Below, piece after piece: positions 164 to 18,344 of a stretch of 64,000 nt of DNA. Where the stretch lies: positions 192,001 to 256,000 of IMG/VR virus record IMGVR_UViG_3300031088_000008; one strand, given 5' to 3'. Both the position numbers and the translations under genes were made by a program. Position 1 is the first letter of the stretch. Each line of letters begins with the position of its first letter. Source of the DNA: a virus (taxonomy: Duplodnaviria; Caudoviricetes). The notes beneath the pieces are model-generated. The model ran no database searches, was not told where the DNA came from, and worked only from the letters and a program-made list of their open reading frames with translations.

Positions 164-175
164 GGTGCTTTCCCC

Positions 176-1558: not shown

Positions 1559-1597
1559 AACGATCTCCTTGGAGAGGATTTCCGATATTTACCAACT

Positions 1598-1861
1598 CTA
1601 CTTTTTTGTGATTGCGGTTGAAAACGCGGGGTTGACAACCTTGTGGATTGCACCACATTTGGCGCAGTGAAAGTCTACCGATCTAAAAATCATGTTTTGC
1701 GAATCAAAGGAAACCTTGGTATCGCACTTGAAGCAAGTGTATTCCCACGGCCCTATTAGCATTGGATATGAACCGTCTTTGACTGTGGCCTTGGCCGGTT
1801 CTAGTGTCATTGCCCCGCGACTTGCCTGTACCGCGTTGGGAAAGTGAATGATATTGCTCAT
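1598..1861 (-). CDS. Small zinc-ribbon protein
   Basis: CFKC...CAKC pairs; TAAATA at 1901-1906 on minus strand. Confidence 0.65.
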   Translation of the reverse strand: MSNIIHFPNAVQASRGAMTLEPAKATVKDGSYPMLIGPWEYTCFKCDTKVSFDSQNMIFRSVDFHCAKCGAIHKVVNPAFSTAITKK

Positions 1862-2053
1862 AGCCTAACTCACTATTAACTCCTGCGGGCTGCTCGCTGA
1901 TATTTAGTACAAGGTATCAGGGCTTATCCACGTACTTTGTGGTTTCCGCCCTGGCATATATGCGGTTGACAAAGAGTGCCAATAGAGCATATACATATTG
2001 CTGCTTGGGAAGCTTCTGTAGTAGGGTTGTATTCTAGGAAAGGATACAACCCT

Positions 2054-2296
2054 ATGCACATTCTAAGTGTTATGTTCTTTGGTCTCCTGGGCCTCGCCCT
2101 CTCTGGCGTCAGCGTTATCATGGCTGCGATCACCATCTTGGCATTGATCCTCGCGTACAGCTATGTGATCTCCAAGGGCATCAGCATCAGGGAAAAGACC
2201 ATTCTTGTTGCCATCCTCTTGTTCATTGCTGGGTGGGGTGGATTCCTCACATATCTGGCTGGACATTTTGGTTTGCTCTACTTGACAATTCAGTAA
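2054..2296 (+). CDS. Small membrane protein
   Basis: Two to three hydrophobic segments; AGGA before ATG 2054. Confidence 0.6.
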   Translation: MHILSVMFFGLLGLALSGVSVIMAAITILALILAYSYVISKGISIREKTILVAILLFIAGWGGFLTYLAGHFGLLYLTIQ

Positions 2297-2326
2297 TCCA
2301 TCGTAAACTGTCATTCACATCATAAG

Positions 2327-2587
2327 GTGAGAAGTGTGGAAAGTCCCGTAAAGATGCTTAGCCAGGAACCGCATATCTTCCGCGTAACGCTGAGCTTTCT
2401 AGCAACCGGCGCTACCAAGATGGTTGTTGTCAGTTATGATGGCTCCATCGTGTACGTTATGGATGCCGATGATTCCTGGCTCCGGGAGTTCAAGTCCGGT
2501 GAGCACAAGATCTACGTGGACGGCCACTATGATCTGCTGGACTGCAATATCTATCTGGGCAAGCGACGGGAAGATCAGGATTGGTAG
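2327..2587 (+). CDS. Hypothetical protein
   Basis: 86 aa ORF overlapping the first array gene. Confidence 0.55.
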   Translation: MRSVESPVKMLSQEPHIFRVTLSFLATGATKMVVVSYDGSIVYVMDADDSWLREFKSGEHKIYVDGHYDLLDCNIYLGKRREDQDW

Positions 2588-2796
2588 AGCCCACCTTTGA
2601 ACAGCAATGGCCGCACCGTGTAGAACTGGCATGCTGTATTACCGACTACACGGATGCCTTTTCCTGGCTGTGGGCTCAGATCCTCAAGAACAATCTAGAG
2701 AGTCGAAAGGTCTTCACCACCTTTGGCCAGCGTAGCGTTGGCTTCAGCGACGAGCATCGACAACTGGCCATGCACTTCAAGCTACGATTTGGTTGA
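2581..2796 (+). CDS. FKLxW-family protein
   Basis: Ends AMHFKLRFG. Confidence 0.75.
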   Translation: MVEPTFEQQWPHRVELACCITDYTDAFSWLWAQILKNNLESRKVFTTFGQRSVGFSDEHRQLAMHFKLRFG

Positions 2797-2820
2797 CATA
2801 GAGTAGAGCGGTGCTAAGCC
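2791..2820 (+). promoter_or_regulatory. Host sigma70-type early promoter
   Basis: GGTTGACATAGAGTAGAGCGGTGCTAAG, same consensus as promoters at 34-60 kb. Confidence 0.65.
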
Positions 2821-2826
2821 AGTTCT

Positions 2827-3087
2827 ATGAAACAGATCGACAGCAAGTACCGCCAATTTCCCACCGCGCTGGAACTGCCTGATCTTCCCACTGATCGTCA
2901 GTTAGCCCGCAGCGAGGAAATGATTGCGTGGATCAAGGAAAGCAACCTAGTCTACCAAAAGGACTTTGTTTGCTTTGAGCACCAGACCGGCAAGCCCGGT
3001 CACAGCAAGAAGGTCACGATGGCCTGGGCCTTCCGCGATCGTGGCACCGCCCTTCACTTCAAACTAACCTTTGGTGGCTGGCGATGA
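2827..3087 (+). CDS. FKLxW-family protein
   Basis: Ends ALHFKLTFGGWR. Confidence 0.85.
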   Translation: MKQIDSKYRQFPTALELPDLPTDRQLARSEEMIAWIKESNLVYQKDFVCFEHQTGKPGHSKKVTMAWAFRDRGTALHFKLTFGGWR

Positions 3088-3584
3088 TGGTGGTCTGCAT
3101 TTCAATCCGCCAGTATTGCAGGGTTGACTACAATACACTCAAGATTCAGCTGGGCACTATGGTCAGTGGATGGATGGATGATTATCTGGTCTGGGAAGGT
3201 GTCGACCACGATTGGCCCGATGCTGATGCCGGGGAAGTTCGTCACCTTCAGACTTGGGTGGCCATTGATGACCACTGGGTAGCGTTCATTTGGAACAGCG
3301 ACGAAATCGGCACCATGTTCAAGAGTTATTTCACGGACTGGAATCCCTCGCACAAGCATCGAGTAATCATCGACGGTATCCGCTACACCGAGGGAACCCT
3401 CAACGGAACTGACATCTTCAAGTGGTTCAAGGAGCGCGACCTCGCCAACTCCGGAGACTACAGCTTTGCTCCTCACATAGATGATAGTACGACACTGGCC
3501 ACGGCCTTTGAGTTCAAGAATGCCCAGACTGCCATGTTGTTCAAGTTGACTTTCGGAGGTACTCATGTTCAAAGCCTTATCTAG
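3084..3584 (+). CDS. FKLxW-family protein, two-unit fusion
   Basis: Internal degenerate IGTMFKSYF plus terminal AMLFKLTFGG; ATGA overlap. Confidence 0.85.
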   Translation: MMVVCISIRQYCRVDYNTLKIQLGTMVSGWMDDYLVWEGVDHDWPDADAGEVRHLQTWVAIDDHWVAFIWNSDEIGTMFKSYFTDWNPSHKHRVIIDGIRYTEGTLNGTDIFKWFKERDLANSGDYSFAPHIDDSTTLATAFEFKNAQTAMLFKLTFGGTHVQSLI

Positions 3585-3897
3585 GGCCAACCGTGAGATG
3601 CAATTGGAAAGCTGGACACCCGTTACAATCACGATGGGAACCATGTTCCACTTGTTCGATCAGGAACGGGAAGACATGGCCACTCCTCTGGACGATCTAA
3701 AGTCCACGTCCGTTCTGTTGTTTCTGGAAACTTGGTGCAAGGCCCATATCAAACAGGGCTTCGCAGTCAAGAGGGAACCGGCATCACTGACCTCCTTTAC
3801 CCAAGTGGGGAAAGATGATAACACCGCATGTCTGATATTTTTGTTCAAATTGTCCAGCGAAGCCGTCCGCTTCAAGATGACGTGGGGCGGACGGTGA
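3565..3897 (+). CDS. FKLxW-family protein
   Basis: Ends AVRFKMTWGGR. Confidence 0.85.
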   Translation: MFKALSRANREMQLESWTPVTITMGTMFHLFDQEREDMATPLDDLKSTSVLLFLETWCKAHIKQGFAVKREPASLTSFTQVGKDDNTACLIFLFKLSSEAVRFKMTWGGR

Positions 3898-4139
3898 GTC
3901 ATACCTTTGTTAAATCCGATGACCACATCTGGGCATGGAACGACGAACCCTTTGTTATGCGAGCCAGCGACGAGGTGAAAAACTGGTTGTTGGCCCACGT
4001 GGGAAAGGAAATGACCTATAGCAGCAAGTGGGGCTGGAAAGGTTCCTGGCGGATACTCCGCATCGATGGCTGCGCTCACTTTGGCTTCGCGGATCCCAAG
4101 AAAGCCATGCTGTTCAAGTTGGCCTGGAGCGGCGTGTGA
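3894..4139 (+). CDS. FKLxW-family protein
   Basis: GTGA overlap start; ends AMLFKLAWSGV. Confidence 0.85.
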   Translation: MSHTFVKSDDHIWAWNDEPFVMRASDEVKNWLLAHVGKEMTYSSKWGWKGSWRILRIDGCAHFGFADPKKAMLFKLAWSGV

Positions 4140-4345
4140 GAAAGCAATTCATCTATGAGGTAAAGATCAGCTGGGCCAAGGATCCCTATGGTGACAATTC
4201 GATCGAGTGGCTGATTGAAAACAAGCTCAAGCCGGAACGTGACTGGCAGATTGACATGCACGGCGGAAAGCTGGACTATCTTAGCTTTTGGTTCCACGAC
4301 GCCAACAAAGCCCTGATCGTCAAGCTCACACTGGGTGGCATGTGA
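4136..4345 (+). CDS. FKLxW-family protein
   Basis: GTGA overlap; ends ALIVKLTLGGM. Confidence 0.8.
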   Translation: MRKQFIYEVKISWAKDPYGDNSIEWLIENKLKPERDWQIDMHGGKLDYLSFWFHDANKALIVKLTLGGM

Positions 4346-4566
4346 GTACCGAGTATCCATTCTGCAAGACGGTGGCGATCAGTACTCGTCAGGGTCGTGC
4401 CCGTTATCCTGAACTCGTAAAATGGCTTGAGGATCAAAACTGGTCCGAGGGCTTTGATTACTCCGTGGATCTCCTATACGGTGAGCCCATGGGTGATCCG
4501 GTTGCTTGGCAGTTTGCCTTTGATGATGCGCGGAAGGCTGTGGCCTTCAAGCTGGTATGGGGATGA
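4342..4566 (+). CDS. FKLxW-family protein
   Basis: GTGA overlap; ends AVAFKLVWG. Confidence 0.85.
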   Translation: MSTEYPFCKTVAISTRQGRARYPELVKWLEDQNWSEGFDYSVDLLYGEPMGDPVAWQFAFDDARKAVAFKLVWG

Positions 4567-4856
4567 AGAACGCCCAGCAGCGCCTGGCTGCTCTTCCCTA
4601 CCATATAATCGTGCCTGGGGTCTGGCATGAGGATCCCATATATGATCGTCTGATCGACGCCATCAACTGGTTGTATGATGATGGTCCGCAATCCACTGAT
4701 TGGTTTGTACACCAGTGTGAAGATGGTATCTTCATAGATAAGAAGAACAAGTACCAGATGTATCCAAGGAAAACAACTGCCTACACGTTCGCGTTCAGGA
4801 ATCGAAACGAAGCCGCGTTATTCAAATTGTTGTGGTTTTATAAATTGAAGTATTGA
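4563..4856 (+). CDS. FKLxW-family protein
   Basis: ATGA overlap; ends AALFKLLWFYKLKY. Confidence 0.85.
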   Translation: MKNAQQRLAALPYHIIVPGVWHEDPIYDRLIDAINWLYDDGPQSTDWFVHQCEDGIFIDKKNKYQMYPRKTTAYTFAFRNRNEAALFKLLWFYKLKY

Positions 4857-4890
4857 AAGTGCGCCTGCTACCTAGGAGGTAGGAGGAGCG

Positions 4891-5181
4891 ATGTTCAATT
4901 TGCCAGAAGAGTCCGATGGTGAGACCAACTATCACATCGTATATCTGAAATTGCCTGGTAGCGTCTGGTGTGAGAGTACCCAGGATCTCCGCGATGACAT
5001 TGATGCGTGGCTGGAAACCAATGATGTTGGTGACGACCAGTACAACAGCTTCTACTTCCGAGACCCAGAGAACGCACAAGAGGGTGACTGGTACCACAAT
5101 GCGGTGACCAGTAACAAATATATCTGTTACTGCTTCGCGGACCGCAACCACGCACTCCTATTCAAACTCACATTCAAGTAG
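4891..5181 (+). CDS. FKLxW-family protein (acidic)
   Basis: AGGAGG RBS; ends ALLFKLTFK. Confidence 0.85.
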   Translation: MFNLPEESDGETNYHIVYLKLPGSVWCESTQDLRDDIDAWLETNDVGDDQYNSFYFRDPENAQEGDWYHNAVTSNKYICYCFADRNHALLFKLTFK

Positions 5182-5183
5182 TC

Positions 5184-5213
5184 GCTTGACACTGGAAACC
5201 CTGGTGCTACAAA
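5184..5213 (+). promoter_or_regulatory. Host sigma70-type early promoter inside the array
   Basis: CTTGACACTGGAAACCCTGGTGCTACA. Confidence 0.65.
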
Positions 5214-5219
5214 GCTGGC

Positions 5220-5501
5220 ATGAAGCGTCTAGTTGATCCTCTCGTGGCAGAAGGCCATAAGGTATTCGTATCCTATGATAGCAGCGCCTTTGAGACTGTG
5301 AAGGTCTCCACTTCCAAGGGGTTCAGCTATACGAGGAGTCGTAGTCCAACAGCTGGATTCCAAGCGTGGCTACAGGACACTGCCGGTCCTCTTGGTATTC
5401 TCTGGACCACGACCAAGGATGAAGAGGGCAAGGGCTTGTTTATCTTTTTCTACAGGTCCAGTCACGCTATGCTATGCAAGCTCACTTGGGGAGGATCATG
5501 A
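5220..5501 (+). CDS. FKLxW-family protein
   Basis: Ends AMLCKLTWGGS. Confidence 0.85.
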   Translation: MKRLVDPLVAEGHKVFVSYDSSAFETVKVSTSKGFSYTRSRSPTAGFQAWLQDTAGPLGILWTTTKDEEGKGLFIFFYRSSHAMLCKLTWGGS

Positions 5502-5785
5502 CGCACGTCTGCATCAAGGTCAATGACGAGATTTGGGATGGCTACGGTCTCCGCCTCGTCATGCACGACTGGCTGGTGCAGAATGTAGGTCAACAGGCCA
5601 GCGACATGACGGATTATACATGGAGCCGGAAAGCTGCCTTTTATCTGAGGGCCAGCGAGAGTTCCATTGATCCCATGTATCTGGCAACCGGTGATCGCCA
5701 GAATGGTCCAGCAAAATTCCTTCACTTCAAGTTCAAAGACCCCGCGAAGGCTATGATGTTCAAACTTGCATGGGGTGGTCGATGA
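5498..5785 (+). CDS. FKLxW-family protein
   Basis: ATGA overlap; ends AMMFKLAWGGR. Confidence 0.85.
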   Translation: MTHVCIKVNDEIWDGYGLRLVMHDWLVQNVGQQASDMTDYTWSRKAAFYLRASESSIDPMYLATGDRQNGPAKFLHFKFKDPAKAMMFKLAWGGR

Positions 5786-6036
5786 CTATTCGGGATAATG
5801 TGATCATCACAACCATCTTCATACCCACGGACAGGTTTCCCTGGAAGCTAGTCAAGGACGATGATGGAGTGGAGCGAAAGCTCTATGATGTCACAGCCGA
5901 ACCTCTAGCAACTGTGGTGTCCATGAACACTGTGTGGGGATTCAACGACAGCACAGATAGCGTGATGATATCATTTCTAGAGGGTTGTGATCTGGATAAG
6001 GTCATGTTATTCAAACTGACTTGGGGAGGATTGTAG
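5782..6036 (+). CDS. FKLxW-family protein
   Basis: ATGA overlap; ends VMLFKLTWGGL. Confidence 0.85.
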   Translation: MTIRDNVIITTIFIPTDRFPWKLVKDDDGVERKLYDVTAEPLATVVSMNTVWGFNDSTDSVMISFLEGCDLDKVMLFKLTWGGL

Positions 6037-6299
6037 TGGCCGACCAGCGTGTGATGCGAAATCTCTTTTACGTCTCGATCATCAAGCGAGCGGAGCTCTT
6101 TCATCAGCTGGCCGACCAGGTCTGCGCTCGAATGGGCCCTCCGCCAGAAGGCATTGAAGCAATGCACCGTCATTTGGAAAAGAGTCACGAGGACGATCTC
6201 CGGTGGCTGGTGGACAACGACGTACAGGTCACCATGAAGATGATCGACCTTATCTCCCAGCGGACTGCGGAGATCAGGAGCAAGTTGATTGCAGACTAG
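6036..6299 (+). CDS. Hypothetical helical protein (non-family passenger in the array)
   Basis: TAGTG overlap after GGAGG; lacks the motif. Confidence 0.65.
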   Translation: MADQRVMRNLFYVSIIKRAELFHQLADQVCARMGPPPEGIEAMHRHLEKSHEDDLRWLVDNDVQVTMKMIDLISQRTAEIRSKLIAD

Positions 6300-6624
6300 C
6301 TATAAGATGGTCTGGGATCGGGGCAATCCACTCAAGGTGGTTGTCGAGGGTTGTGTTCCTGAGAACTCCTTTGTGTTGCGCGGACCTGAGACTCCCGAGG
6401 AACGGCTTGCACGAAAGGCTCAGGAAGCTGCCAACACTCATATGGAAAATCTAGCTCAGCTTTTCCGAAATCACTTTGACAGTCGGTGGCGTGCCAGTGA
6501 TCTCTATCCATGGATGGAAGAGAACGCACCCGGCTACAAAGTTGGAGTATCCAACAAGAGCGGTGCCATTTTGGTATTCCAAGAAAAGCATCACGCTATG
6601 ATGTTCAAGCTAGCCTGGTCATGA
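6289..6624 (+). CDS. FKLxW-family protein
   Basis: Ends AMMFKLAWS. Confidence 0.85.
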   Translation: MQTSYKMVWDRGNPLKVVVEGCVPENSFVLRGPETPEERLARKAQEAANTHMENLAQLFRNHFDSRWRASDLYPWMEENAPGYKVGVSNKSGAILVFQEKHHAMMFKLAWS

Positions 6625-6854
6625 GTGTCAACGTCGTCCTGCCTTTTAGTACCTGTGCTAGTTCTTCAAGCAATGGGTCGGTGAAAGTCCATCTCAACCC
6701 AGATATTTTGGATTGGCTCGCTGACAATGCGCCCCCAATCAGCCAGAAGGTAAACTGGATGTTGGGTCGCGATTACAGTCGATGGCAGGTAATGTTCAAC
6801 CTCCCCGATAAACACACCGCTGTCTTGTTCAAATTGACTTTTGGAGGCCGTTGA
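6621..6854 (+). CDS. FKLxW-family protein
   Basis: ATGA overlap; ends AVLFKLTFGGR. Confidence 0.85.
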   Translation: MSVNVVLPFSTCASSSSNGSVKVHLNPDILDWLADNAPPISQKVNWMLGRDYSRWQVMFNLPDKHTAVLFKLTFGGR

Positions 6855-6869
6855 CCCCATAATGGGTTA

Positions 6870-7307
6870 ATGCGTATCCTGGAACACTTCGACGTTAAAT
6901 TCTCTGGTCCGTTGAAAGCGACAACTCGTAGCCGCTTCACGCTCCAGAATGACGACGGTACAATCTTTGATGTCATGATCCCCGGTGAGGAAAAACTCCT
7001 CGCGGCATTTCGGTGGATGGGCGAGAATGATTGCCTTCGTCATCTGAGATCCGTCGAGCCTGAATACCATGATAATCTCAAGGATATCATGAAGATTGAG
7101 GAATACAACACCCAGGTTCGAGAACACGCTCATCTGGTTGGAAGTCTTCAAACAGGAATCAACTATAACAATTACTCGCCCCAACATTACTCCAGTAATG
7201 GATATCCAATACCGCAGCTTCAACCTGTTCCCTCTGCGGTCTATGAGTGTACGTGGACCTTCTACAGCAAGGAACACGCAGTGATGTTCAAGTTGGCGTG
7301 CGGCTGA
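6870..7307 (+). CDS. FKLxW-family protein with long insertion
   Basis: Ends AVMFKLACG. Confidence 0.8.
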   Translation: MRILEHFDVKFSGPLKATTRSRFTLQNDDGTIFDVMIPGEEKLLAAFRWMGENDCLRHLRSVEPEYHDNLKDIMKIEEYNTQVREHAHLVGSLQTGINYNNYSPQHYSSNGYPIPQLQPVPSAVYECTWTFYSKEHAVMFKLACG

Positions 7308-7672
7308 TGAAACTCATCGAGAAACATCATCAGTGGTATATTGTTCCCAGCGATGGAGAAATGTTCTTTGCCTGGGAAGCCATTGATGCTGAAGTGCCCA
7401 CGCATATTCGTGCCAATCCCCGCATCTTACCTTTTCTTGCCGAATGGATGGATAACACCTGTCCCGGTCGATGGGGAACGGCATGGATGGATAAAGGCAG
7501 GGCTATCTGGATTGAGGACCCCAGTGTCTTTCAATTGTTCAAGTTAGCCTGGCACGATCACGCCGATATCCAGATAGTAGTGATGCCGGAGATCACGGCC
7601 TTCTACTGCCCCTATATTCCACTGACGATCACGAGTGCAATTCCACAGGTGGGCGATGGCGAGGAGGCTTGA
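7307..7672 (+). CDS. FKLxW-family protein with C-terminal gp23-like peptide
   Basis: FQLFKLAWH followed by AFYCPYIPL. Confidence 0.8.
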   Translation: MKLIEKHHQWYIVPSDGEMFFAWEAIDAEVPTHIRANPRILPFLAEWMDNTCPGRWGTAWMDKGRAIWIEDPSVFQLFKLAWHDHADIQIVVMPEITAFYCPYIPLTITSAIPQVGDGEEA

Positions 7673-7904
7673 CGGCGTTCGGGTCGTGATACCCAAGAGC
7701 CGCGTCTGCATTATAGATGAACACGGCTTCGACGACAGTCTCTCGGACGAGTGCTGGGACTGGATCCAAGAAAACATTGGCGCATGGGGTGTGGACTGGG
7801 AACATGGCGAATGTTGGATGTTCGAAGATTATGGGATGACAAGTTTGGAATTTCACTTTAAGAGAGCTTCCGATGCAATGTTGTTCAAACTCACCTGGGC
7901 CTAG
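7656..7904 (+). CDS. FKLxW-family protein
   Basis: Ends AMLFKLTWA. Confidence 0.85.
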   Translation: MARRLDGVRVVIPKSRVCIIDEHGFDDSLSDECWDWIQENIGAWGVDWEHGECWMFEDYGMTSLEFHFKRASDAMLFKLTWA

Positions 7905-8157
7905 CTATTGGGATTTTCCGCTTCCCAATAAAAAGCTCTATCGGGATCTCAGTTGGCGGGCTGAGGATGATGCCAGTCGTTTATTCGATCAGGAAATGAA
8001 GGACTGGCTAGACCAGCACAACTTCTCCTACAATGGCAGGTTTGTTCATGCCTCCACGGATCTCAGCCAGTATGGCGAACAAGTCTATTCCTGGAGGCTT
8101 ATGATTCGACTCTATGATTCCAAAGCTGCCGTGCTATACAAGCTGACATGGATCTAG
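7873..8157 (+). CDS. FKLxW-family protein (start uncertain)
   Basis: Ends AVLYKLTWI. Confidence 0.75.
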   Translation: MQCCSNSPGPSYWDFPLPNKKLYRDLSWRAEDDASRLFDQEMKDWLDQHNFSYNGRFVHASTDLSQYGEQVYSWRLMIRLYDSKAAVLYKLTWI

Positions 8158-8438
8158 AAGCTACCATTCACACCATTGAGGTGCCAGTCAACGCCGAGTG
8201 CATTGATCGCGCTGGCCGATGGCTCGCAGAGCGTCTGGGTGAGCCCGGATGGAAAAGCAAGCCCCGCACCAACGAACATGGCGATGTGGCCTTTGATGCG
8301 TCTCGTATCTATATGGAAGACGTGCTTTGGGACGCATACGTCAACCCCAGCAGCTTTCGCGCTTTCTTTTTGATCAAAGAAAACGACAACCTTGCCATGT
8401 TGTTCAAGCTGACCTTTGGAGGACAGAATGCTGATTGA
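8148..8438 (+). CDS. FKLxW-family protein
   Basis: Ends AMLFKLTFGGQNAD. Confidence 0.85.
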   Translation: MDLEATIHTIEVPVNAECIDRAGRWLAERLGEPGWKSKPRTNEHGDVAFDASRIYMEDVLWDAYVNPSSFRAFFLIKENDNLAMLFKLTFGGQNAD

Positions 8439-8853
8439 GGAAGTCAAGTGGCGCAAATGGCTGGGACTTCCCTACATCAGTGTTCAGGGGGAATGGCTGG
8501 AAGAGTTCTATCAGCGAAAGCTCAATCAGGGAGATGTCTCGAGCGCACGATGGACTGGTGGCTTCGAGGAATACCGCTGGGCAAAACCCATAAGGGATTG
8601 GCTCCAGGAAAGTGGCGGACGTTACAAGCTAGAAAAGTGTGGGCAAGCCAGCGACTTCGCGGTTGGAAGGCAAGCTAAGATCTGGTTTCGTGATATGAAG
8701 AATGTCACGATGTTCAAGCTGGCTTGGGGTGGGGCAAAGAAGCCTGAGGATCCGCCAGTTGTGTTTGGTGTTACGAGAACTCTCGTCAAGGCCAAGAGTA
8801 GAAAGCTGAAGGGCACTTGGTCCCTTCAGCCTCCTGAAAAATCTACGAAGTAA
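8428..8853 (+). CDS. FKLxW-family protein with C-terminal gp23-like peptide
   Basis: VTMFKLAWGG followed by VTRTLVKAKSRKLKGTWSL. Confidence 0.8.
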   Translation: MLIEEVKWRKWLGLPYISVQGEWLEEFYQRKLNQGDVSSARWTGGFEEYRWAKPIRDWLQESGGRYKLEKCGQASDFAVGRQAKIWFRDMKNVTMFKLAWGGAKKPEDPPVVFGVTRTLVKAKSRKLKGTWSLQPPEKSTK

Positions 8854-9294
8854 TTACTTGACCAGACCAGGAAGGTAACGACCGCCTGCTGGTGGAAGAG
8901 TCAAGACCTGCTGACGGTGACTGATGCCTCCCTTGAGACCAAAGCCAATGTGGACCCAACGGCGCTTTTCGTGGATAAGCTGGTCGAACTTTAGACCACC
9001 CTTGATCAGTGCGGCACAAATCTCATAGGGAGTTCCAAAGTCAGGGCTTACAAAGTCAACACCAAAGCCAAAGCTGTGAGCGGAAGTTACCACGCCACCA
9101 ACGGCACGGTTTACCGCATCACAACGGAAGCCACTGTTGACGCTGATTGGTGTGCCAAGAATTGCACGGACCTTTTCCATCATCTGAGCAGTGTGGGTCA
9201 AGTTTGCCAATTGTGCGGCGTTGGGAACATTCTTGATACCCGTTCCGGTAACGGTCATCTCGGCCAAACTAAAATGCGGTGTAAGCTGGGTCAT
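8854..9294 (-). CDS. Peptidase M15A-family endolysin/peptidoglycan hydrolase
   Basis: LTPHFSLAEM, NSGFRC..VN..VGG...SAH..G..VD, DQLIHE..WVHIG zinc motifs; AAGGAG RBS; TAAATA upstream. Confidence 0.9.
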   Translation of the reverse strand: MTQLTPHFSLAEMTVTGTGIKNVPNAAQLANLTHTAQMMEKVRAILGTPISVNSGFRCDAVNRAVGGVVTSAHSFGFGVDFVSPDFGTPYEICAALIKGGLKFDQLIHEKRRWVHIGFGLKGGISHRQQVLTLPPAGGRYLPGLVK

Positions 9295-9320
9295 GATCGA
9301 TCTCCTTTTGGGGTACAGAA

Positions 9321-9350
9321 TATTTAAGGAGATTTTCCACCCATTAAATA
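9321..9350. promoter_or_regulatory. Back-to-back TAAATA late-promoter boxes
   Basis: TATTTA 9321-9326 and TAAATA 9345-9350. Confidence 0.6.
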
Positions 9351-9354
9351 GGCT

Positions 9355-9585
9355 GTGGATGACCTTTTTGAATATCCCCCGCAAACTAGATCGATCAGGG
9401 TTCAGTTGCCTATGGTCAAGAGTTCCATGCACCACTATGCGGTTCGCACCTGGCTATTGGAGCAGACTTGGCAGGAATATGAAGACTGGATAATTGGTCG
9501 AGAGAGTTTTCACACCGGCATTTATGAGGTGTGGTTTACAGATGTGGGCAAGGCAGTATATTTCAAACTATGTTTCAGTATCTAG
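9355..9585 (+). CDS. FKLxW-family protein (divergent)
   Basis: Ends AVYFKLCFSI. Confidence 0.75.
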   Translation: MDDLFEYPPQTRSIRVQLPMVKSSMHHYAVRTWLLEQTWQEYEDWIIGRESFHTGIYEVWFTDVGKAVYFKLCFSI

Positions 9586-9821
9586 ACCGCAGGCTTGAAT
9601 ACTACTTCAGCCACTACATGGAACTGCCCTACAGCTTTCGCGGTCACTTCTTCCACAACCTATCCCAACGAGACACCGTGGTAGATCAGCTGGAAGAGAT
9701 GCTGCTCTCTTATGGCATCCGTGGGTGGGATTATCTTCTAATAGTACAGCAGGATCGTTTCTGCGTGTATTTTCAAAAACACAGTGCCGCAGTGCGGTTT
9801 TATCTAAATTGGTATCTGTGA
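9570..9821 (+). CDS. FKLxW-family protein (degenerate motif)
   Basis: Ends AVRFYLNWYL. Confidence 0.7.
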   Translation: MFQYLDRRLEYYFSHYMELPYSFRGHFFHNLSQRDTVVDQLEEMLLSYGIRGWDYLLIVQQDRFCVYFQKHSAAVRFYLNWYL

Positions 9822-10097
9822 AGCTTCTTTGGGGCGTCCTGAAGCATTCCAACATAAAAGAAACAACTGGGCAGTGCGGCGCTCTCCGAACTGAAATATC
9901 CGCCCCACATGCTCCATACCCGCGTCGGGACCAAATTCTCCATAGGTAACATAGGGGCGATACCAATTTACCAGCCCCCAATCCCCGCCATGGGCATCCA
10001 GCCACTCCTGTACTTTTTCGGACAGGCAACGTGTTTTGGCGCGCTTGGCTCCAAAGACACCGTTGTTGGCAAAGTGGACTGCTACTTCGTAATTCAC
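9804..10097 (-). CDS. FKLxW-family protein (degenerate motif)
   Basis: GTGA overlap; AQLFLLCWN. Confidence 0.75.
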   Translation of the reverse strand: MNYEVAVHFANNGVFGAKRAKTRCLSEKVQEWLDAHGGDWGLVNWYRPYVTYGEFGPDAGMEHVGRIFQFGERRTAQLFLLCWNASGRPKEASQIPI

Positions 10098-10330
10098 GGG
10101 TTCGCCAAAGAGTCCAGGCCATAAAAGCTCAACTTGAACATGGTCGCCCATGAAGCCTCCCGAAAACAATAGACCCTGAGGTCGCCAACTTCCTGAAAAT
10201 AATCCATGTAATCAACGGCGTTCATGTGAAGCCAGGCATCCGCCCTTGCCTCGAGCGACATGTCATACTCTGGAAGACCAACCTCGTGGGGATAGTCGGC
10301 TTGGATCATGCGAATATAGGCATTGGGCAT
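10094..10330 (-). CDS. FKLxW-family protein
   Basis: ATMFKLSFYG. Confidence 0.8.
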   Translation of the reverse strand: MPNAYIRMIQADYPHEVGLPEYDMSLEARADAWLHMNAVDYMDYFQEVGDLRVYCFREASWATMFKLSFYGLDSLANP

Positions 10331-10614
10331 TAGATGCTCCCACACCAGCGAAGCTTGAACAGCATGGCCGCATTGGCATCCGAAAAGCCAATTATCCGAC
10401 CACGTGCTGGATCACCTTTGGGCAAATTGTTGTTCCACTGTCGCCAGTAGCCCTGCAGGTTTTCCTCGCACCAGTCCCACACTTCATCGCGGATTTCATA
10501 TCCATCGGGAAACTTTGTGGCGCTGTGGTTGGTCCTCAGGTACTCTTTCCATTCAATGTACCGACACACCCGGTCATTGCTGTATGGTACGCTGATTGTG
10601 ACCTCAAATTCCAT
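10330..10614 (-). CDS. FKLxW-family protein
   Basis: AMLFKLRWCGSI. Confidence 0.85.
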   Translation of the reverse strand: MEFEVTISVPYSNDRVCRYIEWKEYLRTNHSATKFPDGYEIRDEVWDWCEENLQGYWRQWNNNLPKGDPARGRIIGFSDANAAMLFKLRWCGSI

Positions 10615-10632
10615 GCCACGTCCTAGCAGTCT

Positions 10633-10917
10633 TTAGCCCCAAGTCAACTTGAACAAGAGTGCCTTGTTGGGATCCTTAAAGTAGAAGTTGGTATCGGTAA
10701 CCAACAATGGAATGTCGTTTCTCCACATTCCAATCTCCCTCATGGTGTTCTTGGGGCCAACGTGTTCTATGAGCCAGTTCAAGACGTCTTCCCTGAGATG
10801 CAGGGATTTGATACGAAAGCCGTTTTCATCCACGATGGACCACACGCATTGGTTGGCAATGTTGGCGCAAAACCATCCGTTCTCGTCTTCGTCATCAAAG
10901 ACGCCAGGATTATTCAC
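10633..10917 (-). CDS. FKLxW-family protein
   Basis: ALLFKLTWG. Confidence 0.85.
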   Translation of the reverse strand: MNNPGVFDDEDENGWFCANIANQCVWSIVDENGFRIKSLHLREDVLNWLIEHVGPKNTMREIGMWRNDIPLLVTDTNFYFKDPNKALLFKLTWG

Positions 10918-11185
10918 TGGCCCACCTCATCTTAAACAGCTGGGCGTCCCGCATCTCGGCAAAGAACCAAATGATGTGCTCGTCAATCGTCCTAAGACCC
11001 ATCTTGCTACCAGAGAGAACATCCTCTTTGGTCAGGATGGCGCCCGTTCGGACCAGCATTAGGTCGTAGTCGCCCTCGATGGTTGCAAGCCAGGCATAGA
11101 TCTCGTCAAGCCATGTCCCACGATGTTCCTGGCTATCTGGATTAGGAACAGGCATCATCACGCAATGGCCGGTAAAAACTGTCAT
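10910..11185 (-). CDS. FKLxW-family protein
   Basis: AQLFKMRWASE. Confidence 0.85.
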   Translation of the reverse strand: MTVFTGHCVMMPVPNPDSQEHRGTWLDEIYAWLATIEGDYDLMLVRTGAILTKEDVLSGSKMGLRTIDEHIIWFFAEMRDAQLFKMRWASE

Positions 11186-11472
11186 AGAAACTTCAACTTG
11201 AAAAGAGCCGCGCGGCCTCGATCACTAATGGACAAGTGCCAGTGATCATAGACATTACACCAGAGTTGATATGTACTCGATCCAATAACCAACAGGGCAT
11301 CATCACTTAAAAAGTACCAGGGAGCCAGGCCGATACTCTTAGGCTTCATAATTTGGGCACTGCTCACACATAGGCGGTCAGTTGGCGGATTGAAATGGTC
11401 GTGACTGTACCAGAGCCACCCATCTTTGTTTATGGTGTCAATGCGATGTGGTAGCATGAAGGTTGTGCTCAT
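11182..11472 (-). CDS. FKLxW-family protein
   Basis: AALFKLKFL. Confidence 0.8.
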   Translation of the reverse strand: MSTTFMLPHRIDTINKDGWLWYSHDHFNPPTDRLCVSSAQIMKPKSIGLAPWYFLSDDALLVIGSSTYQLWCNVYDHWHLSISDRGRAALFKLKFL

Positions 11473-11475
11473 AGC

Positions 11476-11739
11476 TCAGGCATTCTGTATGTGGTGATAC
11501 CATCGAAGCTTGAAAATCATACCATCGCTGTTCTTGTAGAAGAGGATGTGGGTCTCAAACACCTGTGCCTTTTGGTGCTTTCCCTCGGAAGCCTTTTCGT
11601 TGTGCTTCCACTCCAATCCATACTCCGTGATCCCGCTATCGTCGAGCCAATCCTGAACTTCATAGGGGAGACGAGGTGGTGCGAGTTCCTCGTTGCGGTT
11701 TCCCCACACGTGGTAATCTTTGATAATGAACTGAATCAT
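11476..11739 (-). CDS. FKLxW-family protein
   Basis: GMIFKLRWY. Confidence 0.85.
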   Translation of the reverse strand: MIQFIIKDYHVWGNRNEELAPPRLPYEVQDWLDDSGITEYGLEWKHNEKASEGKHQKAQVFETHILFYKNSDGMIFKLRWYHHIQNA

Positions 11740-11960
11740 CGATACCACGCCAGCTTGAACAACATGGCGTCCTTTCGATCTTTGAACAAGATGTCCTGCT
11801 GAAGGTGGTCAGGATCTGCGCTCTTGTGCTGATTGTCACCAAACTTCATCGTAACGCGCAGCTCATGCCCAGCCGCATGTAGCCAAGCCAAAAGAGCCTG
11901 AAACTCCAAGCGGTGAAGCCGGATGGTTACCTTGTTGGGAAAGTCTTTATTTCGCACCAT
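11736..11960 (-). CDS. FKLxW-family protein
   Basis: AMLFKLAWYR. Confidence 0.85.
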   Translation of the reverse strand: MVRNKDFPNKVTIRLHRLEFQALLAWLHAAGHELRVTMKFGDNQHKSADPDHLQQDILFKDRKDAMLFKLAWYR

Positions 11961-12255
11961 GGTCCCACCTCAACTTGAACAACATTAGGTCTCGACGAAA
12001 ACGAAAGTAGATGGGACGCATCCATCGTGGACCTGTGATGTCTATGAGACCAGTACCATCGGGACTTTCAACCCACCATCGACCACGAGGCAATTTGTCC
12101 AGCCACGCCCTAACATCTTCCCTCAGAGGATAGGCATCATAGTCGTCATATTGCTCGTCTTCAATTCGATCAAAGAATTCACTGGACCACTCGGCCACGG
12201 CACGCCATGCTCGCCCCTGGGCAATAAAGGATTTCCAGGAGTGGTGCGTTTCCAT
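11947..12255 (-). CDS. FKLxW-family protein
   Basis: LMLFKLRWDHGAK. Confidence 0.85.
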   Translation of the reverse strand: METHHSWKSFIAQGRAWRAVAEWSSEFFDRIEDEQYDDYDAYPLREDVRAWLDKLPRGRWWVESPDGTGLIDITGPRWMRPIYFRFRRDLMLFKLRWDHGAK

Positions 12256-12275
12256 ACCTGTACCGTAAAGCCAGG

Positions 12276-12494
12276 TTAGGCAAAAGTCAACTTGAACAAC
12301 ACGGCTGCCTGTGGATCGTCGAAGTGAAAGAGAATGGTATCCAGGCCAAAGGAAACGTCCCATCCATTATAGACCCTATTGGGATCCTTGCTCGCAAGGC
12401 AGAGCTCGGGAAAGTGGGCTATCAACCATTCAGCAGATTCCCTGTAGGTGCTCTGCCAATTTCCTCGATCAGAGATTTCCACCGTTACAGCCAT
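12276..12494 (-). CDS. FKLxW-family protein
   Basis: AVLFKLTFA. Confidence 0.85.
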   Translation of the reverse strand: MAVTVEISDRGNWQSTYRESAEWLIAHFPELCLASKDPNRVYNGWDVSFGLDTILFHFDDPQAAVLFKLTFA

Positions 12495-12721
12495 GAGAGT
12501 TTGAACAGCATGGCTGCCTCTCGGTCCTCGGTCTTAAAGCAGAAGTGACGCAGGAATGGAAATGGTGCGATACCCGAGGTGTCCACATTGGAACTCCAAA
12601 TGACATCAAGCGCCCGGTCGTCAAACCATTCGGCTATCTCAATCCAGTGATCATCGCTCTGATCCATTGGCATGCTGACGATTACGGGATGAGTTTGCAT
12701 GACCAGTGACATCAAGGGCAT
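12485..12721 (-). CDS. FKLxW-family protein
   Basis: AMLFKLSWL. Confidence 0.85.
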   Translation of the reverse strand: MPLMSLVMQTHPVIVSMPMDQSDDHWIEIAEWFDDRALDVIWSSNVDTSGIAPFPFLRHFCFKTEDREAAMLFKLSWL

Positions 12722-12954
12722 TATGCCCACCTCAATTTGAACATCATGGCATTTTGGGGCTCACGGAACTCAAACATGATCCCCACAAATTCCACATTGT
12801 TGTGGACGCCTGGCTTGCTCACCACGGTGCTAATAGGTCGTTCCTTGACATGTTCCACGGCCCATTCTACCAGATAGGTCTGAACAGCTTTTACCTTGTT
12901 GATCTCTTCATTGATCTCGCGAAGGCGCGCCAGAGATAGTTCAACTTCCCTCAT
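12721..12954 (-). CDS. FKLxW-family protein
   Basis: AMMFKLRWA. Confidence 0.85.
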   Translation of the reverse strand: MREVELSLARLREINEEINKVKAVQTYLVEWAVEHVKERPISTVVSKPGVHNNVEFVGIMFEFREPQNAMMFKLRWA

Positions 12955-13265
12955 GCCCACCTCAACTTGAATAGGACTGCTCTCGAGGGATCACGGAACA
13001 CAAAGAAGGCGTTATCGGTCCGTGTGGCGATCACCCAGCCCCAGTCCTCATGACCCACGCATTGTTCTCCCGAAGAGACGCAACCCGGTCCATCGTTCTC
13101 GCAGTGGTCAAGATGAAAGACCAATTCCACAATGTTGGTCCACCAACGGCTATCACCCAGGCCAACGTTTGCCCGGAGCCAGTCTAGGACTTCCGGCTTT
13201 AGGGTGATACCCATTTCCCAGTTGACCAGTCGCTCATAGGGCAGCTCAACAGTCGCGCTAGTCAT
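12951..13265 (-). CDS. FKLxW-family protein
   Basis: AVLFKLRWA. Confidence 0.85.
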   Translation of the reverse strand: MTSATVELPYERLVNWEMGITLKPEVLDWLRANVGLGDSRWWTNIVELVFHLDHCENDGPGCVSSGEQCVGHEDWGWVIATRTDNAFFVFRDPSRAVLFKLRWA

Positions 13266-13546
13266 CGACCACCAAATGTAAGTTTGAATAGAACAATGGT
13301 ATCAAGGTCCACTTCGTCACCAAAGTAAAAATGTAGATCCTTGCTTCCAAACTGCGCCAGCCATCCAGGAGTGAAGTCCCAGTTCTTGCCTCTGATATCC
13401 CCACCGTTGCCGTTGCTGGGTCCCAGACGCTCTCCCGCCCACATGACTGCATCGGCAATCTTCTCACCACTGGGATCGTGGAGTGTCACGACAGTAACCT
13501 TTGGGAGGTCTATATCGCTGGGAACCCAAAAGACTTGCTGCTTCAT
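13262..13546 (-). CDS. FKLxW-family protein
   Basis: IVLFKLTFGGR. Confidence 0.85.
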   Translation of the reverse strand: MKQQVFWVPSDIDLPKVTVVTLHDPSGEKIADAVMWAGERLGPSNGNGGDIRGKNWDFTPGWLAQFGSKDLHFYFGDEVDLDTIVLFKLTFGGR

Positions 13547-13842
13547 TGTCCACCCCAGCGAAGCTTGAACAACATGGCGTGTTTGGCATCCGCATCATTG
13601 AAGCAGATCATCCGGTGATTCCAGATGCCACCACTTCCCTCTCGACGCCTCTGGTCGTAATTGTAGCTCTTCACGCACCAATGCCCGGGAGGCAATTCCT
13701 TCAACGTGGATCCGCTGGGAATGTACTGGAGGTTCATCTCCTTGGCCCAGGTCTTTATCGCATCAAGGACCGCCACCCAGGGGTTTGAGGTGTCTTCAGA
13801 CAGGTTGTAGATCTGTTTGTCAGTGAGAGGAAAGGTGATCAT
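13543..13842 (-). CDS. FKLxW-family protein
   Basis: AMLFKLRWGGQ; GGAGG RBS. Confidence 0.85.
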   Translation of the reverse strand: MITFPLTDKQIYNLSEDTSNPWVAVLDAIKTWAKEMNLQYIPSGSTLKELPPGHWCVKSYNYDQRRREGSGGIWNHRMICFNDADAKHAMLFKLRWGGQ

Positions 13843-13862
13843 TAATCCTCCCTATAGAGTAT

Positions 13863-14123
13863 CTAGCCCCAAGTCAATTTGAACAGCATGGCAAAATCAG
13901 GATCGTTCTGAAAGTAAAAGACCCACTCATCACTGGTGCGACCAGAAGTCCAACCCCAGCCAACTCTGTCCTCACTATACAGTCGATCGTGCCCGCTCAG
14001 TCCCTTCTTTTCCACACACCAGGAAAGTGCATCATTCAAACTGGCTGTTGGAACGCGGACAAACGTGCAGGAATTGTACCACTCCATGCTCTTGCTCAGC
14101 GTGTCTCCCCAAAGGTCGCTCAC
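13863..14123 (-). CDS. FKLxW-family protein
   Basis: AMLFKLTWG. Confidence 0.85.
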   Translation of the reverse strand: MSDLWGDTLSKSMEWYNSCTFVRVPTASLNDALSWCVEKKGLSGHDRLYSEDRVGWGWTSGRTSDEWVFYFQNDPDFAMLFKLTWG

Positions 14124-14350
14124 TTTCCACCCCACGTTAGTTTGAACAACATGGCATCCCTGGCAAACTCATCAGGAAATACCACCGACCAGTCCTGCTC
14201 ACTGAGGCTGGCATTGGATCGAAAAGGAATTCCTCGACTATCCATAAAGTCAAGCACTTCGGGGCGAACTTTCCAATACCCACCCCGTCGATTTCTTGCC
14301 TCCAACCACTCGCAGGCTTTTGAAAGATCACAGTGAACACGAATACCCAT
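14120..14350 (-). CDS. FKLxW-family protein
   Basis: AMLFKLTWGGK. Confidence 0.85.
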   Translation of the reverse strand: MGIRVHCDLSKACEWLEARNRRGGYWKVRPEVLDFMDSRGIPFRSNASLSEQDWSVVFPDEFARDAMLFKLTWGGK

Positions 14351-14718
14351 CAGGGAATACTCAGCTTGAACAAGAGCGCATCGCTCTTCAATTCAAAGGC
14401 AATCTCACGGATGCTGCGGAACTTGTCGCGTATCTCATCAGTTACCATATTCAGTTTGCGGGCCAACCGCAACTCTTCCTGGTCATCACGGGTAACGGTT
14501 ATCTGTTCAATGGTGGTGAACCGACGATTGTTCACGTAGTACCAGCGACCCTTGCAGTTTGCCTCCAACCACTCAAATACATGGTCGGCAATGGGGACGC
14601 CATAGGTTGCCGGTCGACCATCAGGTCGCCAGCGATGGACCGGAGAAGTCTCCGAGTTGAAACCCTTACGGGAAAAGTACCGGACGCCATAGAGGGGCAC
14701 GAATGTCCACTCAATCAT
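14350..14718 (-). CDS. FKLxW-family protein
   Basis: ALLFKLSIP. Confidence 0.8.
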   Translation of the reverse strand: MIEWTFVPLYGVRYFSRKGFNSETSPVHRWRPDGRPATYGVPIADHVFEWLEANCKGRWYYVNNRRFTTIEQITVTRDDQEELRLARKLNMVTDEIRDKFRSIREIAFELKSDALLFKLSIP

Positions 14719-14948
14719 ATCCAGGTCAACTTGAACAAAAGTGCCACATCCTTGTCCTCTATGGTCACGATACAGTTCTGTGTGTCAAAGTCAATGTCGT
14801 GGTCCCACTTGTTGGGAGCCAGTCGGGCATCTAGCCAGTCGGCTATCTCGGGGTTGAATATCTGATAACTTCCCCAGGGGCTTTCCGTACAGTGGTGTTC
14901 CCTGTAGGCAACCTTATCACTGAGTATGATGCTGTACTCTACGCCCAT
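14715..14948 (-). CDS. FKLxW-family protein
   Basis: ALLFKLTWI. Confidence 0.85.
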   Translation of the reverse strand: MGVEYSIILSDKVAYREHHCTESPWGSYQIFNPEIADWLDARLAPNKWDHDIDFDTQNCIVTIEDKDVALLFKLTWI

Positions 14949-15193
14949 GTGAGTTTGAACAACATGGCAGCTTTGGGATCCTGGAAGGATATGGCATTGT
15001 TGGTGGGTTGCCCATCAACAAAGGCGTAGACCCATATCCACTCACACTCCCCGGACCAACCACCAGCTTGATTTCCTCGTCCCACAAAGGTGGTCAACCA
15101 CTGAAAAACATCCTGGCGAATCCACCATCCACTACTGTAGGGGTGAGTGTCCCTATATAGGATGCTGCTGGGAATGGGGACCACACTATCCAT
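14939..15193 (-). CDS. FKLxW-family protein
   Basis: AMLFKLTWA. Confidence 0.85.
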   Translation of the reverse strand: MDSVVPIPSSILYRDTHPYSSGWWIRQDVFQWLTTFVGRGNQAGGWSGECEWIWVYAFVDGQPTNNAISFQDPKAAMLFKLTWA

Positions 15194-15549
15194 TAGCCCC
15201 AAGCCAGCTTGAACATCATCACGTCTTTACGACGCCGGAAAAGGATCCCACACTCCTCACCAAACTCACTGGGATGCTCGGTGGTCCAGTCCATGTAGTT
15301 CAAGCTATCGTGGAGCCAGTTACGGATATCTGGACGAAGGTAATCGTAGTTGGGATGAAAATCGTAGTTGTGGTTGTGGTCTTCACTCTCGAGGGTAAAG
15401 AGCTCATTGTCATAGCCAAAAGCCGAGTTGCTCTGCCGACCGCGAACCAGCGAGGGAGCATCCACCTTGGGCTTTCCAATGGCGGTCACGCGATAGCGAT
15501 AGTTCCAGGGCCACCAGGGGATACCAATGTCATGAATCTGTATTTTCAT
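15193..15549 (-). CDS. FKLxW-family protein
   Basis: VMMFKLAWG. Confidence 0.85.
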   Translation of the reverse strand: MKIQIHDIGIPWWPWNYRYRVTAIGKPKVDAPSLVRGRQSNSAFGYDNELFTLESEDHNHNYDFHPNYDYLRPDIRNWLHDSLNYMDWTTEHPSEFGEECGILFRRRKDVMMFKLAWG

Positions 15550-15790
15550 CAGCCCTGCTTTCTACGAGAAGAAAAATCAGTTGGGCGGTCCGGCGGTCCT
15601 GAAATGCCAGGTCGTGACGGTAGGAGGGGTTCATAGCCATCCACCAATCACGTCGCCACTCAAGACCCAGTTCCTCAAACCACAGGTCGATCTCCCAATC
15701 GAGATCGCCATTCATATTGGCCCACGTACTTGGCATGATGCTGCTGGGAATGCTTACCAGCCAGGAAGTTTGAGGACGCCGTCTAGCCAT
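15530..15790 (-). CDS. FKLxW-family protein (degenerate motif)
   Basis: AFQDRRTAQLIFLL. Confidence 0.7.
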   Translation of the reverse strand: MARRRPQTSWLVSIPSSIMPSTWANMNGDLDWEIDLWFEELGLEWRRDWWMAMNPSYRHDLAFQDRRTAQLIFLLVESRADENTDS

Positions 15791-15811
15791 CTTCCTCTCT
15801 ATAGAGCAGAA

Positions 15812-16093
15812 CTATAACCAAGTCAACTTGAACAAGAGGGCATCAGAGGCTTCCCGGAAACCAAAGGAAACTCCAATGACTTCTCGGTGAGGCTCCCAAA
15901 CACTGGAGTTTCTATGAAGCAACTCAATGGTAGCGTGGCTACGGGTAAAAGAAGTAAGCCACTCGCATAGCTCATCAGTTGGAACTATCTGGTATCCCCG
16001 GGGCTTTCCCCACTCCAATCCCCGGGGAAGAGAAGTGTGTCGGCGATTGTAATTTCCAAGTGCTCCTGGGAGCATGATCGAGAGTTCATACAT
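15812..16093 (-). CDS. FKLxW-family protein
   Basis: ALLFKLTWL. Confidence 0.85.
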   Translation of the reverse strand: MYELSIMLPGALGNYNRRHTSLPRGLEWGKPRGYQIVPTDELCEWLTSFTRSHATIELLHRNSSVWEPHREVIGVSFGFREASDALLFKLTWL

Positions 16094-16114
16094 AAGCCCA
16101 CTATAGGAGTGGAC

Positions 16115-16459
16115 TTATCCCCACGTCAATTTAAAGAGCACTGCATCGCTCGGGTTAGGAATGTAAACTCCACACTTCGCAGCATAGGTTGCTAGACCCC
16201 AATCTTCATCAGATTCAGGAACCTTGTATATTGAACATAGTTCATAGGCTATGTTGTTAGCAATGAGCCAATTCTTTTCTCGACAAGTTTCGGTGCTATC
16301 CCACCAGAATAGAAATCCAAACTCTATAGAGCCTGCAGGATCCCCTACAAACATGGGTCTGAACTCAAAACTGTCACCGGTGATGTCAAGTAGCTCACGA
16401 TGACTATGCTTGATCGGAAAAATCTGATTGGGGTTCCACCCCGGATGAGGCCGCTTCAA
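16115..16459 (-). CDS. FKLxW-family protein
   Basis: AVLFKLTWG. Confidence 0.85.
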   Translation of the reverse strand: MKRPHPGWNPNQIFPIKHSHRELLDITGDSFEFRPMFVGDPAGSIEFGFLFWWDSTETCREKNWLIANNIAYELCSIYKVPESDEDWGLATYAAKCGVYIPNPSDAVLFKLTWG

Positions 16460-18093: not shown

Positions 18094-18116
18094 CTTTTCT
18101 CTCTATAGAGGAAGAG

Positions 18117-18335: not shown

Positions 18336-18344
18336 GTTTCCGCT

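Follow-up and report, generated by a model that had tools for sequence, protein, structure and literature searches.

A small protein from a paralogue array of a giant T4-type phage carries a gp23-like capsid segment and may act as a peptide mimic

[quoted passage not shown] The protein (141 aa) is the product of an open reading frame (ORF) at 8428-8853 on the plus strand, and the segment that its tail resembles is the conserved strand that precedes the gp23 spine helix. What is such a tail for? The likeliest answer, by analogy with known systems, is that it is a peptide mimic or bait, and first of all a decoy, aimed at a host sensor or other factor that recognises conserved stretches of gp23. 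We hold this answer tentatively and would give it somewhat less than an even chance. Positions refer to the window, i.e., the whole 64,000-nucleotide stretch of DNA that was analysed (bases 192,001-256,000 of the source record), unless they are marked as genome positions.

The source record is 416,714 bp long, is ~90% complete according to CheckV, and belongs to a giant (jumbo) T4-type phage that is soil- or plant-associated. It contains one full-length T4-type major capsid gene, located at genome position 49,297-50,559 on the minus strand. The product of this gene, called the phage's own gp23 below, matches Pfam Gp23 (PF07068) at E=1.1e-95 and aligns to the solved T4 gp23 structures 5vf3, 6uzc, and 8gmo at E ~2e-42. 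By gp23 identity, the nearest deposited phage is Sinorhizobium phage Phosso (469 kb, 86%), followed by Agrobacterium phage Atu_ph07 (69%) and Pseudomonas PA5oct-like phages (68%). DNA near-identical to the stretch 7200-8900 was found in plant and phyllosphere metagenome runs. Eight runs contain at least half of the sampled words of this stretch, the source run possibly being one of them, and no RNA run is among those listed.

The array consists of genes for a family of mini-proteins that share a C-terminal motif. A motif scan identified 41 ORFs at 3.5-18.6 kb of the window that end in A-x-LFKL[TA]W, often with GG next. A hidden Markov model (HMM) built from these ORFs found 93 ORFs genome-wide at E<=1e-3, 49 of them inside the window; a further member that the HMM missed at this threshold (the L002 fusion described below) was added by hand, bringing the family to 94. 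The window members detected by the HMM form a plus-strand block of 19 ORFs (2818-9585) and a minus-strand block of 30 ORFs (9804-18942). AlphaFold2, run with 39 paralogues as the alignment, modelled the paralogue domain as strands and two helices with a pLDDT of 80.6, the last helix being the motif. In other words, the family domain is predicted to be a small alpha/beta mini-domain of 60-70 residues. Searches with this model returned no structure in the PDB at E<=0.001 (best 1.9) and nothing significant in BFVD, where the best hits (0.087) were uncharacterised phage proteins. None of the 49 window members matched PHROGs at E<=0.01, and the single one that matched Pfam did so at the chance level (E=0.0097). 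The A-x-LFKL[TA]W family is unannotated and is absent from Pfam and PHROGs.

The family extends well beyond this phage. A profile search of 1.84 billion representative proteins recovered 974 family clusters (50% identity) at E<=0.001. The analysis thereby delimits a sizeable group of small phage proteins that had no annotation. Nearly all of the 974 representatives are 66-110 residues long and have the domain at the C-terminus; a few have tandem double domains. Tandem double domains were also noted in four members from other phages (P0024, P0027, P0033, and P0063), in which the motif closes each domain.

ORF 8428-8853 is a member of this family by the HMM (E=2.2e-6, HMM positions 27-74), the C-terminal helix motif included, and is composed of three parts. 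The body, which starts with an ATG at 8428 and runs to 8727, is the family domain; it closes with the ..MFKLAW helix, whose Trp codon occupies 8725-8727. Next come GG and a Pro-rich linker (8728-8763) that is variable among orthologues. The third part is the gp23-like core V-x-A-K-S-R-x-L-K-x-x-W-S-L (8764-8826, plus strand), which corresponds to residues ~252-273 of T4 gp23 in the P domain. Eight residues follow the core, and the stop codon lies at 8851-8853. With 41 residues after the motif, this ORF departs from the family rule of a C-terminal motif: 39 of the 41 ORFs from the motif scan have at most nine residues there, and only two have long tails, of 39 and 41 residues. The first-pass annotation had described an ORF that extends past the motif with a Pro-rich linker and a tail, and the parts lie where it had placed them. 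AlphaFold2 modelling of the whole 141-aa protein from a 4-row alignment was uninformative (pLDDT 35.6). Directly after the ORF, and between members of the array, lies a minus-strand gene at 8854-9435 that encodes a peptidase M15/endolysin-like protein (Pfam PF08291, E=8.3e-17; phrog_894 endolysin, E=1.6e-34) and overlaps the plus-strand family ORF 9355-9585 by ~80 bases on the opposite strand.

Is the tail really a piece of gp23? Taken alone, the window protein matches the Pfam profile weakly (E=0.26), with amino acids 106-133 aligned to profile positions 129-156 of 376 and a score of 11.1 bits that does not reach the gathering cut-off of 24.4 bits. The same residues match the major head protein family phrog_138 at E=0.2. 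When the bare tail was compared with 50,697 phage records by tblastn (E<=10), all 25 listed rows fell in major head protein genes of unrelated phages, each at a non-significant E of ~2; with both fusions of the window as queries, the same records gave no match at E<=1e-3. A scan of a viral contig collection with the alignment of four orthologues yielded 65 pattern matches, none of which was confirmed. The single-sequence values (~2 with tblastn and 0.26 with Pfam) are what an accidental resemblance of a basic, amphipathic tail to gp23 would have in its favour.

Comparisons that include relatives of the protein give a different answer. Three database orthologues (P0002-P0004) are 55-83% identical to it over the full length. 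All four proteins share the pattern V-x-A-K-[ST]-R-x-L-x-x-x-W-[ST]-L, in which V, A, K, R, L, W, and L never change, and the linker varies. Orthologue P0003, scanned against the whole libraries, matched Pfam Gp23 at E=5.1e-4 (20.0 bits) and phrog_138 at E=2.1e-4. The tails of the four orthologues were also combined into an HMM and compared, with every filter switched off, with the 1,244 ORFs of the genome that lie outside the family and encode 100 aa or more; the only significant match was gp23, at E=4.3e-7, and the runner-up had an E of 0.91. When the Phosso genome was translated in six frames, the tail part of this profile matched the gp23 gene at E=6.9e-4. The single sequence is itself suggestive when it is aligned to the phage's own gp23 by Smith-Waterman: it scored 38 and fell at the homologous place, compared with 24.2+-3.6 for shuffled sequences, 8 of 2,000 of which reached that score. 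Given the orthologue, tail-profile, and Phosso matches, the likeness is real. These matches, and the sister tails that match other segments of gp23, refute an accidental resemblance, which is hardly credible any longer. The first-pass annotation had taken the tail for a gp23-type segment, and the profile similarity on which that reading turns is present: it is weak for the single sequence and clear for its relatives. The protein is by no means a small capsid protein, since its match is confined to the 28 profile positions given above and the remainder is the unrelated family domain, which leaves no full-length HK97-type fold with A, P, and insertion domains.

A second fusion lies close by. The sister ORF at 7307-7672 (plus strand; its start was assigned from orthologues) comprises a family domain and a 39-residue tail with YCPYIPLT that copies the P-loop strand of gp23, approximately T4 residues 445-461. 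Its gp23-like core (7589-7639, plus strand) was delimited by Smith-Waterman alignment, orthologue alignment, and profile search. The tail scores 59 against the phage's own gp23, as opposed to 25.3+-4.1 for shuffled sequences, none of 2,000 of which reached that value, and a profile of eight orthologous sister tails matched gp23 alone (E=2.4e-7; next best 0.11). The motifs of the two fusions start at 7535 and 8710, i.e., 1,175 bases apart. The earlier observation of two capsid-like peptides on the same scaffold ~1.2 kb apart is thereby borne out, the other peptide being gp23-derived as well.

A third fusion, L002, was found elsewhere in the genome (genome position 162,400-162,897). It has a variant motif followed by ~70 residues that match Pfam Gp23 at profile positions 3-49 with E=2.1e-12 to ~1e-11. 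It passes the Pfam threshold with 44.9 bits, over profile positions 3-48 only. A 119-residue relative, P0014, retains the L002 tail almost unchanged, with an invariant core and a diverged body. Directly upstream of L002 is another family member (L002:627-1307; genome position 161,832-162,512, plus strand) with a 144-residue tail; the best Pfam match of this tail was E=0.058, PHROGs gave none, and the best BLAST match within the phage's own proteome was E=0.041. Two shorter tails, of 20 and 24 residues at genome positions 66.2 kb and 277.5 kb, were considered as gp23 pieces and rejected as chance, because 142 and 368 of 2,000 shuffled sequences reached their scores.

It had also been suggested that the array collects mimic epitopes. 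A BLAST comparison of the 94 family ORFs with the 1,244 other ORFs gave no significant match to a recognisable protein except gp23, and the PHROG and Pfam scans of the 49 window members described above added none. Since every recognisable appended piece is gp23, the array is no general collector of epitopes, and the suggestion is not supported in that general form. Pieces of gp23 are carried by only 3 of the ~93 family members.

The design recurs in Phosso, where 48 matches to the family and two additional gp23 fragments, differently arranged, were counted. In one of its proteins, XYS97328.1 (127 aa), a P-loop hairpin piece stands at the N-terminus and the family domain follows (Pfam E=9e-6). 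These arrangements point to repeated, independent fusions. Atu_ph07, which has a similar genome size, contains neither the family nor the fragments. The second Phosso fragment is a Gol-like gp23 segment that lies in frame upstream of the annotated start of XYS97433.1 (PV764938.1 ~182,169-182,855; L015:1370-2056) and has a Pfam E of 2.3e-9 when translation begins at an ATG upstream. The annotation may place the start of this protein too far downstream. In the ESM Atlas, the cluster nearest to the family domain that bears any Pfam annotation is a viral one of 113 members with a representative of 114 aa (score 0.80, to be taken as a lead only). PF07068 Gp23 is borne by 13% of its members, which suggests that further small proteins with capsid pieces exist.

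How old are the tails, and does selection maintain them? Where the three tails agree with the phage's own gp23, the same codon is used at 8 of 23, 3 of 8, and 2 of 5 identical residues, which amounts to synonymous saturation. Because synonymous sites are saturated, the tails are old copies rather than recent DNA transfers. The tail of ORF 8428-8853 shares only 5 of 20 residues with own gp23. The sister motif YCPY[IV]PL is invariant in all eight database orthologues, which are ~50% identical, and in all six metagenome loci (38-99% identical), where its codons differ by synonymous changes. In three other runs, contigs cover 7200-8900 in one piece at 97-98% identity and with no indels. Among the listed population differences in ORF 8428-8853, 13 of 15 are synonymous, and the others are D108V, in the linker, and V115I; a further 44 differences occur across 7200-8900 beyond those listed. 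Because the motifs stay invariant in diverged bodies, the linker is variable, and synonymous codons turn over, the tail peptides are, on this comparative evidence, under selection as protein.

These data also bear on the view that the tails are functionless leftovers, either of a broken gp23 copy or of illegitimate recombination that happened to be in frame. The family does sit in rearrangement-prone arrays, and its arrangement differs from that in Phosso, as such a history would leave it. However, debris is not expected to hold its motifs constant while synonymous codons turn over and the bodies of the orthologues drift to 38-59% identity, and the population variants indicate purifying selection. 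Furthermore, the order of the two pieces in the window, with the C-terminal piece first, is not colinear with gp23. We consider leftovers highly improbable. Even jointly with an accidental resemblance they are very improbable, both being disfavoured by the conservation data.

Where do the three pieces fall in the capsid protein? T4 numbering was obtained by alignment of own gp23 to the T4 structures, as the 5vf3 index plus 65. On this scale the tails cover residues ~93-132 (L002), 252-273 (ORF 8428-8853), and 445-461 (sister). Gol is taken here to be residues 93-122 of T4 gp23, and on that assumption the L002 tail is Gol-like. The tail of ORF 8428-8853 lies outside the Gol region, which is N-proximal and is where the L002 tail maps. 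T4 head-length mutations fall into three groups, and every tail takes in one or more positions of one of them. As described in PMC9546572, these groups are A66/A94/G97, A268/A275/D285/D287, and T457/R460/G461 of the P loop, all near quasi-threefold axes, and the N-terminal group probably touches the scaffolding core. The same paper places the gp31-bypass change A455V in the P-domain sheet and describes the insertion domain as joined via two E-loop-like linkers (PMC9546572).

The mapping brings in a different kind of function. The tails may dock small proteins on the prohead or the scaffolding core, either as cargo to be injected or to tune capsid geometry. The three tails together cover positions of all three head-length groups, and their architecture, in which a brief conserved peptide hangs from one end of a protein on a flexible linker, would suit docking. 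Peptides that target HK97-fold shells include the capsid targeting sequence of T4 internal proteins, the cargo-loading peptides of encapsulins, and satellite proteins that copy the ends of scaffold proteins. They resemble the tails in being short, conserved, flexibly tethered, located at a protein end, and tied to head assembly; unlike the tails, none of them is a copy of the shell protein itself. In folded gp23, moreover, the strands already pair within the subunit, so that a free copy has no evident partner. The coincidence with the mutation groups may just reflect that the most conserved parts of gp23 were copied, and a docking function has to contend with the tail being present on such a small part of the family. 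Docking is rather unlikely in our judgement.

The choice of targets could also lie outside the phage's own particle. According to a further explanation, the tails are dominant-negative strand mimics that poison capsid folding or assembly of co-infecting T4-type phages, and the phage's own diverged gp23 escapes. The tail of ORF 8428-8853 and its orthologues do keep the gp23 consensus A-K-S/T-R-x-L, from which own gp23 differs, as the low identity given above indicates, and the listed tblastn rows of the bare tail, non-significant one by one, all fell in genes for head proteins of phages that are not related to this one. A large, variable array of small genes would, in addition, be typical of conflict functions. 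The other two tails do not behave in this manner: for them, own gp23 is as near a match as any other gp23 (23 of 40 residues, compared with at most 57.8% over 45 residues among GenBank phages). Interference with rival phages is unlikely, and less likely than docking.

The peptide-mimic reading remains the likeliest in our view. It draws on three results, namely that the gp23 homology is real, that the peptide is selected, and that the design recurs in Phosso, and from three precedents: Gol, the role of capsid proteins as defence triggers, and the decoy proposal for Bodo saltans virus. In T4, the Gol region (~29 residues) binds EF-Tu and activates Lit, and it is called the most conserved part of gp23 (PMC3014915). 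Defence systems are commonly set off by major capsid proteins (PMC9712102; PMC11312562). How would the tail act? It would be a linear peptide mimic shown in trans, which could compete for, or bait, a factor that reads the conserved segment in new or unassembled capsid protein. Likeliest among such factors would be those of the host, whether immune sensors or others, of the type exemplified by Lit/Gol/EF-Tu or CapRel. The protein would then be a decoy, with the family domain as its soluble carrier or as the bearer of a further function, for instance blocking or docking.

Several observations sit less comfortably with the decoy reading. An early Gol-like peptide could trigger a Lit-type system instead of blocking it. 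Residues on both faces of the strands are kept, and structural complementation or contacts made during assembly would account for this as readily as the groove of a sensor would. The three segments also include positions of all three head-length mutation clusters, and a role in capsid assembly is at least as natural a reading of that. The case of Atu_ph07, with neither family nor fragments, indicates that the function would be accessory. The tail of ORF 8428-8853 is also no closer to own gp23 (5 of 20) than to the general family consensus.

How does the fusion compare with known systems? With T4-type gp23 itself (PF07068; 5vf3, 6uzc, 8gmo) it shares the conserved strand before the spine helix, and one sister shares the P-loop strand and the other the N-proximal region, which is the most conserved; unlike gp23, these proteins have only ~21-45 of the >400 residues, placed on an unrelated mini-domain, and hence no HK97 fold. 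We know of no trans activity for the segment around T4 gp23 252-273. A Gol-type peptide binds domains II/III of EF-Tu and makes cleavage by Lit possible. The Gol/EF-Tu/Lit system (e14 exclusion) is alike in that it involves a short linear stretch of gp23 which works as a free peptide and which host proteins recognise (PMC3014915), and L002 carries the homologous region. It differs in that the peptide of T4 is part of gp23 and triggers defence, whereas here it belongs to a separate gene product and the tail of ORF 8428-8853 is another segment.

The closest published analogue in design is the family of ankyrin proteins of Bodo saltans virus. Pieces of genes that this virus cannot do without are attached to members of its expanded ankyrin family, for which a role as decoys against host antiviral factors was proposed (Deeg et al. 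2018, PMC5871332). The likeness lies in a massively expanded paralogue array of which some members bear pieces of essential genes from the virus itself (PMC5871332); here, 3 of ~93 paralogues have gp23 pieces. The differences are that Bodo saltans virus is a giant virus of eukaryotes whose ankyrin repeats carry N-terminal fragments of DNA polymerase or of the MutS catalytic domain (PMC5871332), whereas the present case is a bacteriophage with an alpha/beta domain and short, mostly C-terminal capsid strands. A decoy role is a proposal in both. The finding is thus a variant of a known theme, viral proteins that bear mimic fragments of essential viral genes. Neither the motif nor capsid-fragment fusions in phages are described in the article texts covered, including the jumbo-phage comparative review PMC7824862.

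A broader proposal can be built on the three fusions. Giant T4-type phages may run a capsid-peptide mimicry system of three mini-proteins with one gp23 element each, one of them Gol-like and presumably EF-Tu-binding, that act as baits and either blind sensors of nascent capsid protein or redirect assembly. Such a system would be widespread and unrecognised. We regard this proposal as possible but, on balance, doubtful. Hardly any phage answer other than escape mutations in the capsid gene is known to us. Capsid proteins are emerging as a main signal by which bacteria perceive phage infection, with CapRel, Lit/Gol, Thoeris, and CBASS as examples (PMC9712102; PMC11312562). A phage that expresses separate and selected copies of the least changeable capsid segments would represent a novel kind of answer or an additional level of control over head assembly. 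A mimicry system, if true, would be the phage counterpart of the decoy idea for Bodo saltans virus, with a role in counter-defence or assembly control. The idea is testable because the Sinorhizobium phage Phosso is in culture, on a bacterium that is a harmless symbiont of plants, and has the family as well as two capsid-fragment genes.

Some further features of the array region were recorded. A scan of window positions 1-20,000 found promoters and terminators at chance frequency (19 promoters vs 19.6+-4.8 expected; 20 terminators vs 16.2+-4.2). The idea that a 'WGG' ending doubles as the Shine-Dalgarno sequence of the next gene was rejected: it is true at 8416-8430, before ORF 8428-8853, but only 7 of 21 [WF]GG endings have a Shine-Dalgarno sequence plus start downstream. 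Beside the array are three genes for large proteins with He_PIG Ig-like domains (26301-28304, minus strand; 28834-29997 and 32084-33229, plus strand; E 6e-19 to 4e-28), which are probably virion surface or fibre proteins. Among the other large neighbours of the array that were scanned, six of seven had no Pfam match, and the seventh lies at 179-1558, on the opposite side of the array. The palindrome CTCTATAGRG occurs at eight sites (13 matches on both strands; expected 0.08) at 13850-19442. All eight sites in the genome fall within this one 5.6-kb stretch, and those checked lie just upstream of minus-strand family genes. The palindrome may serve this stretch as a promoter or another regulatory element, or it may be the trace of a recent tandem duplication.
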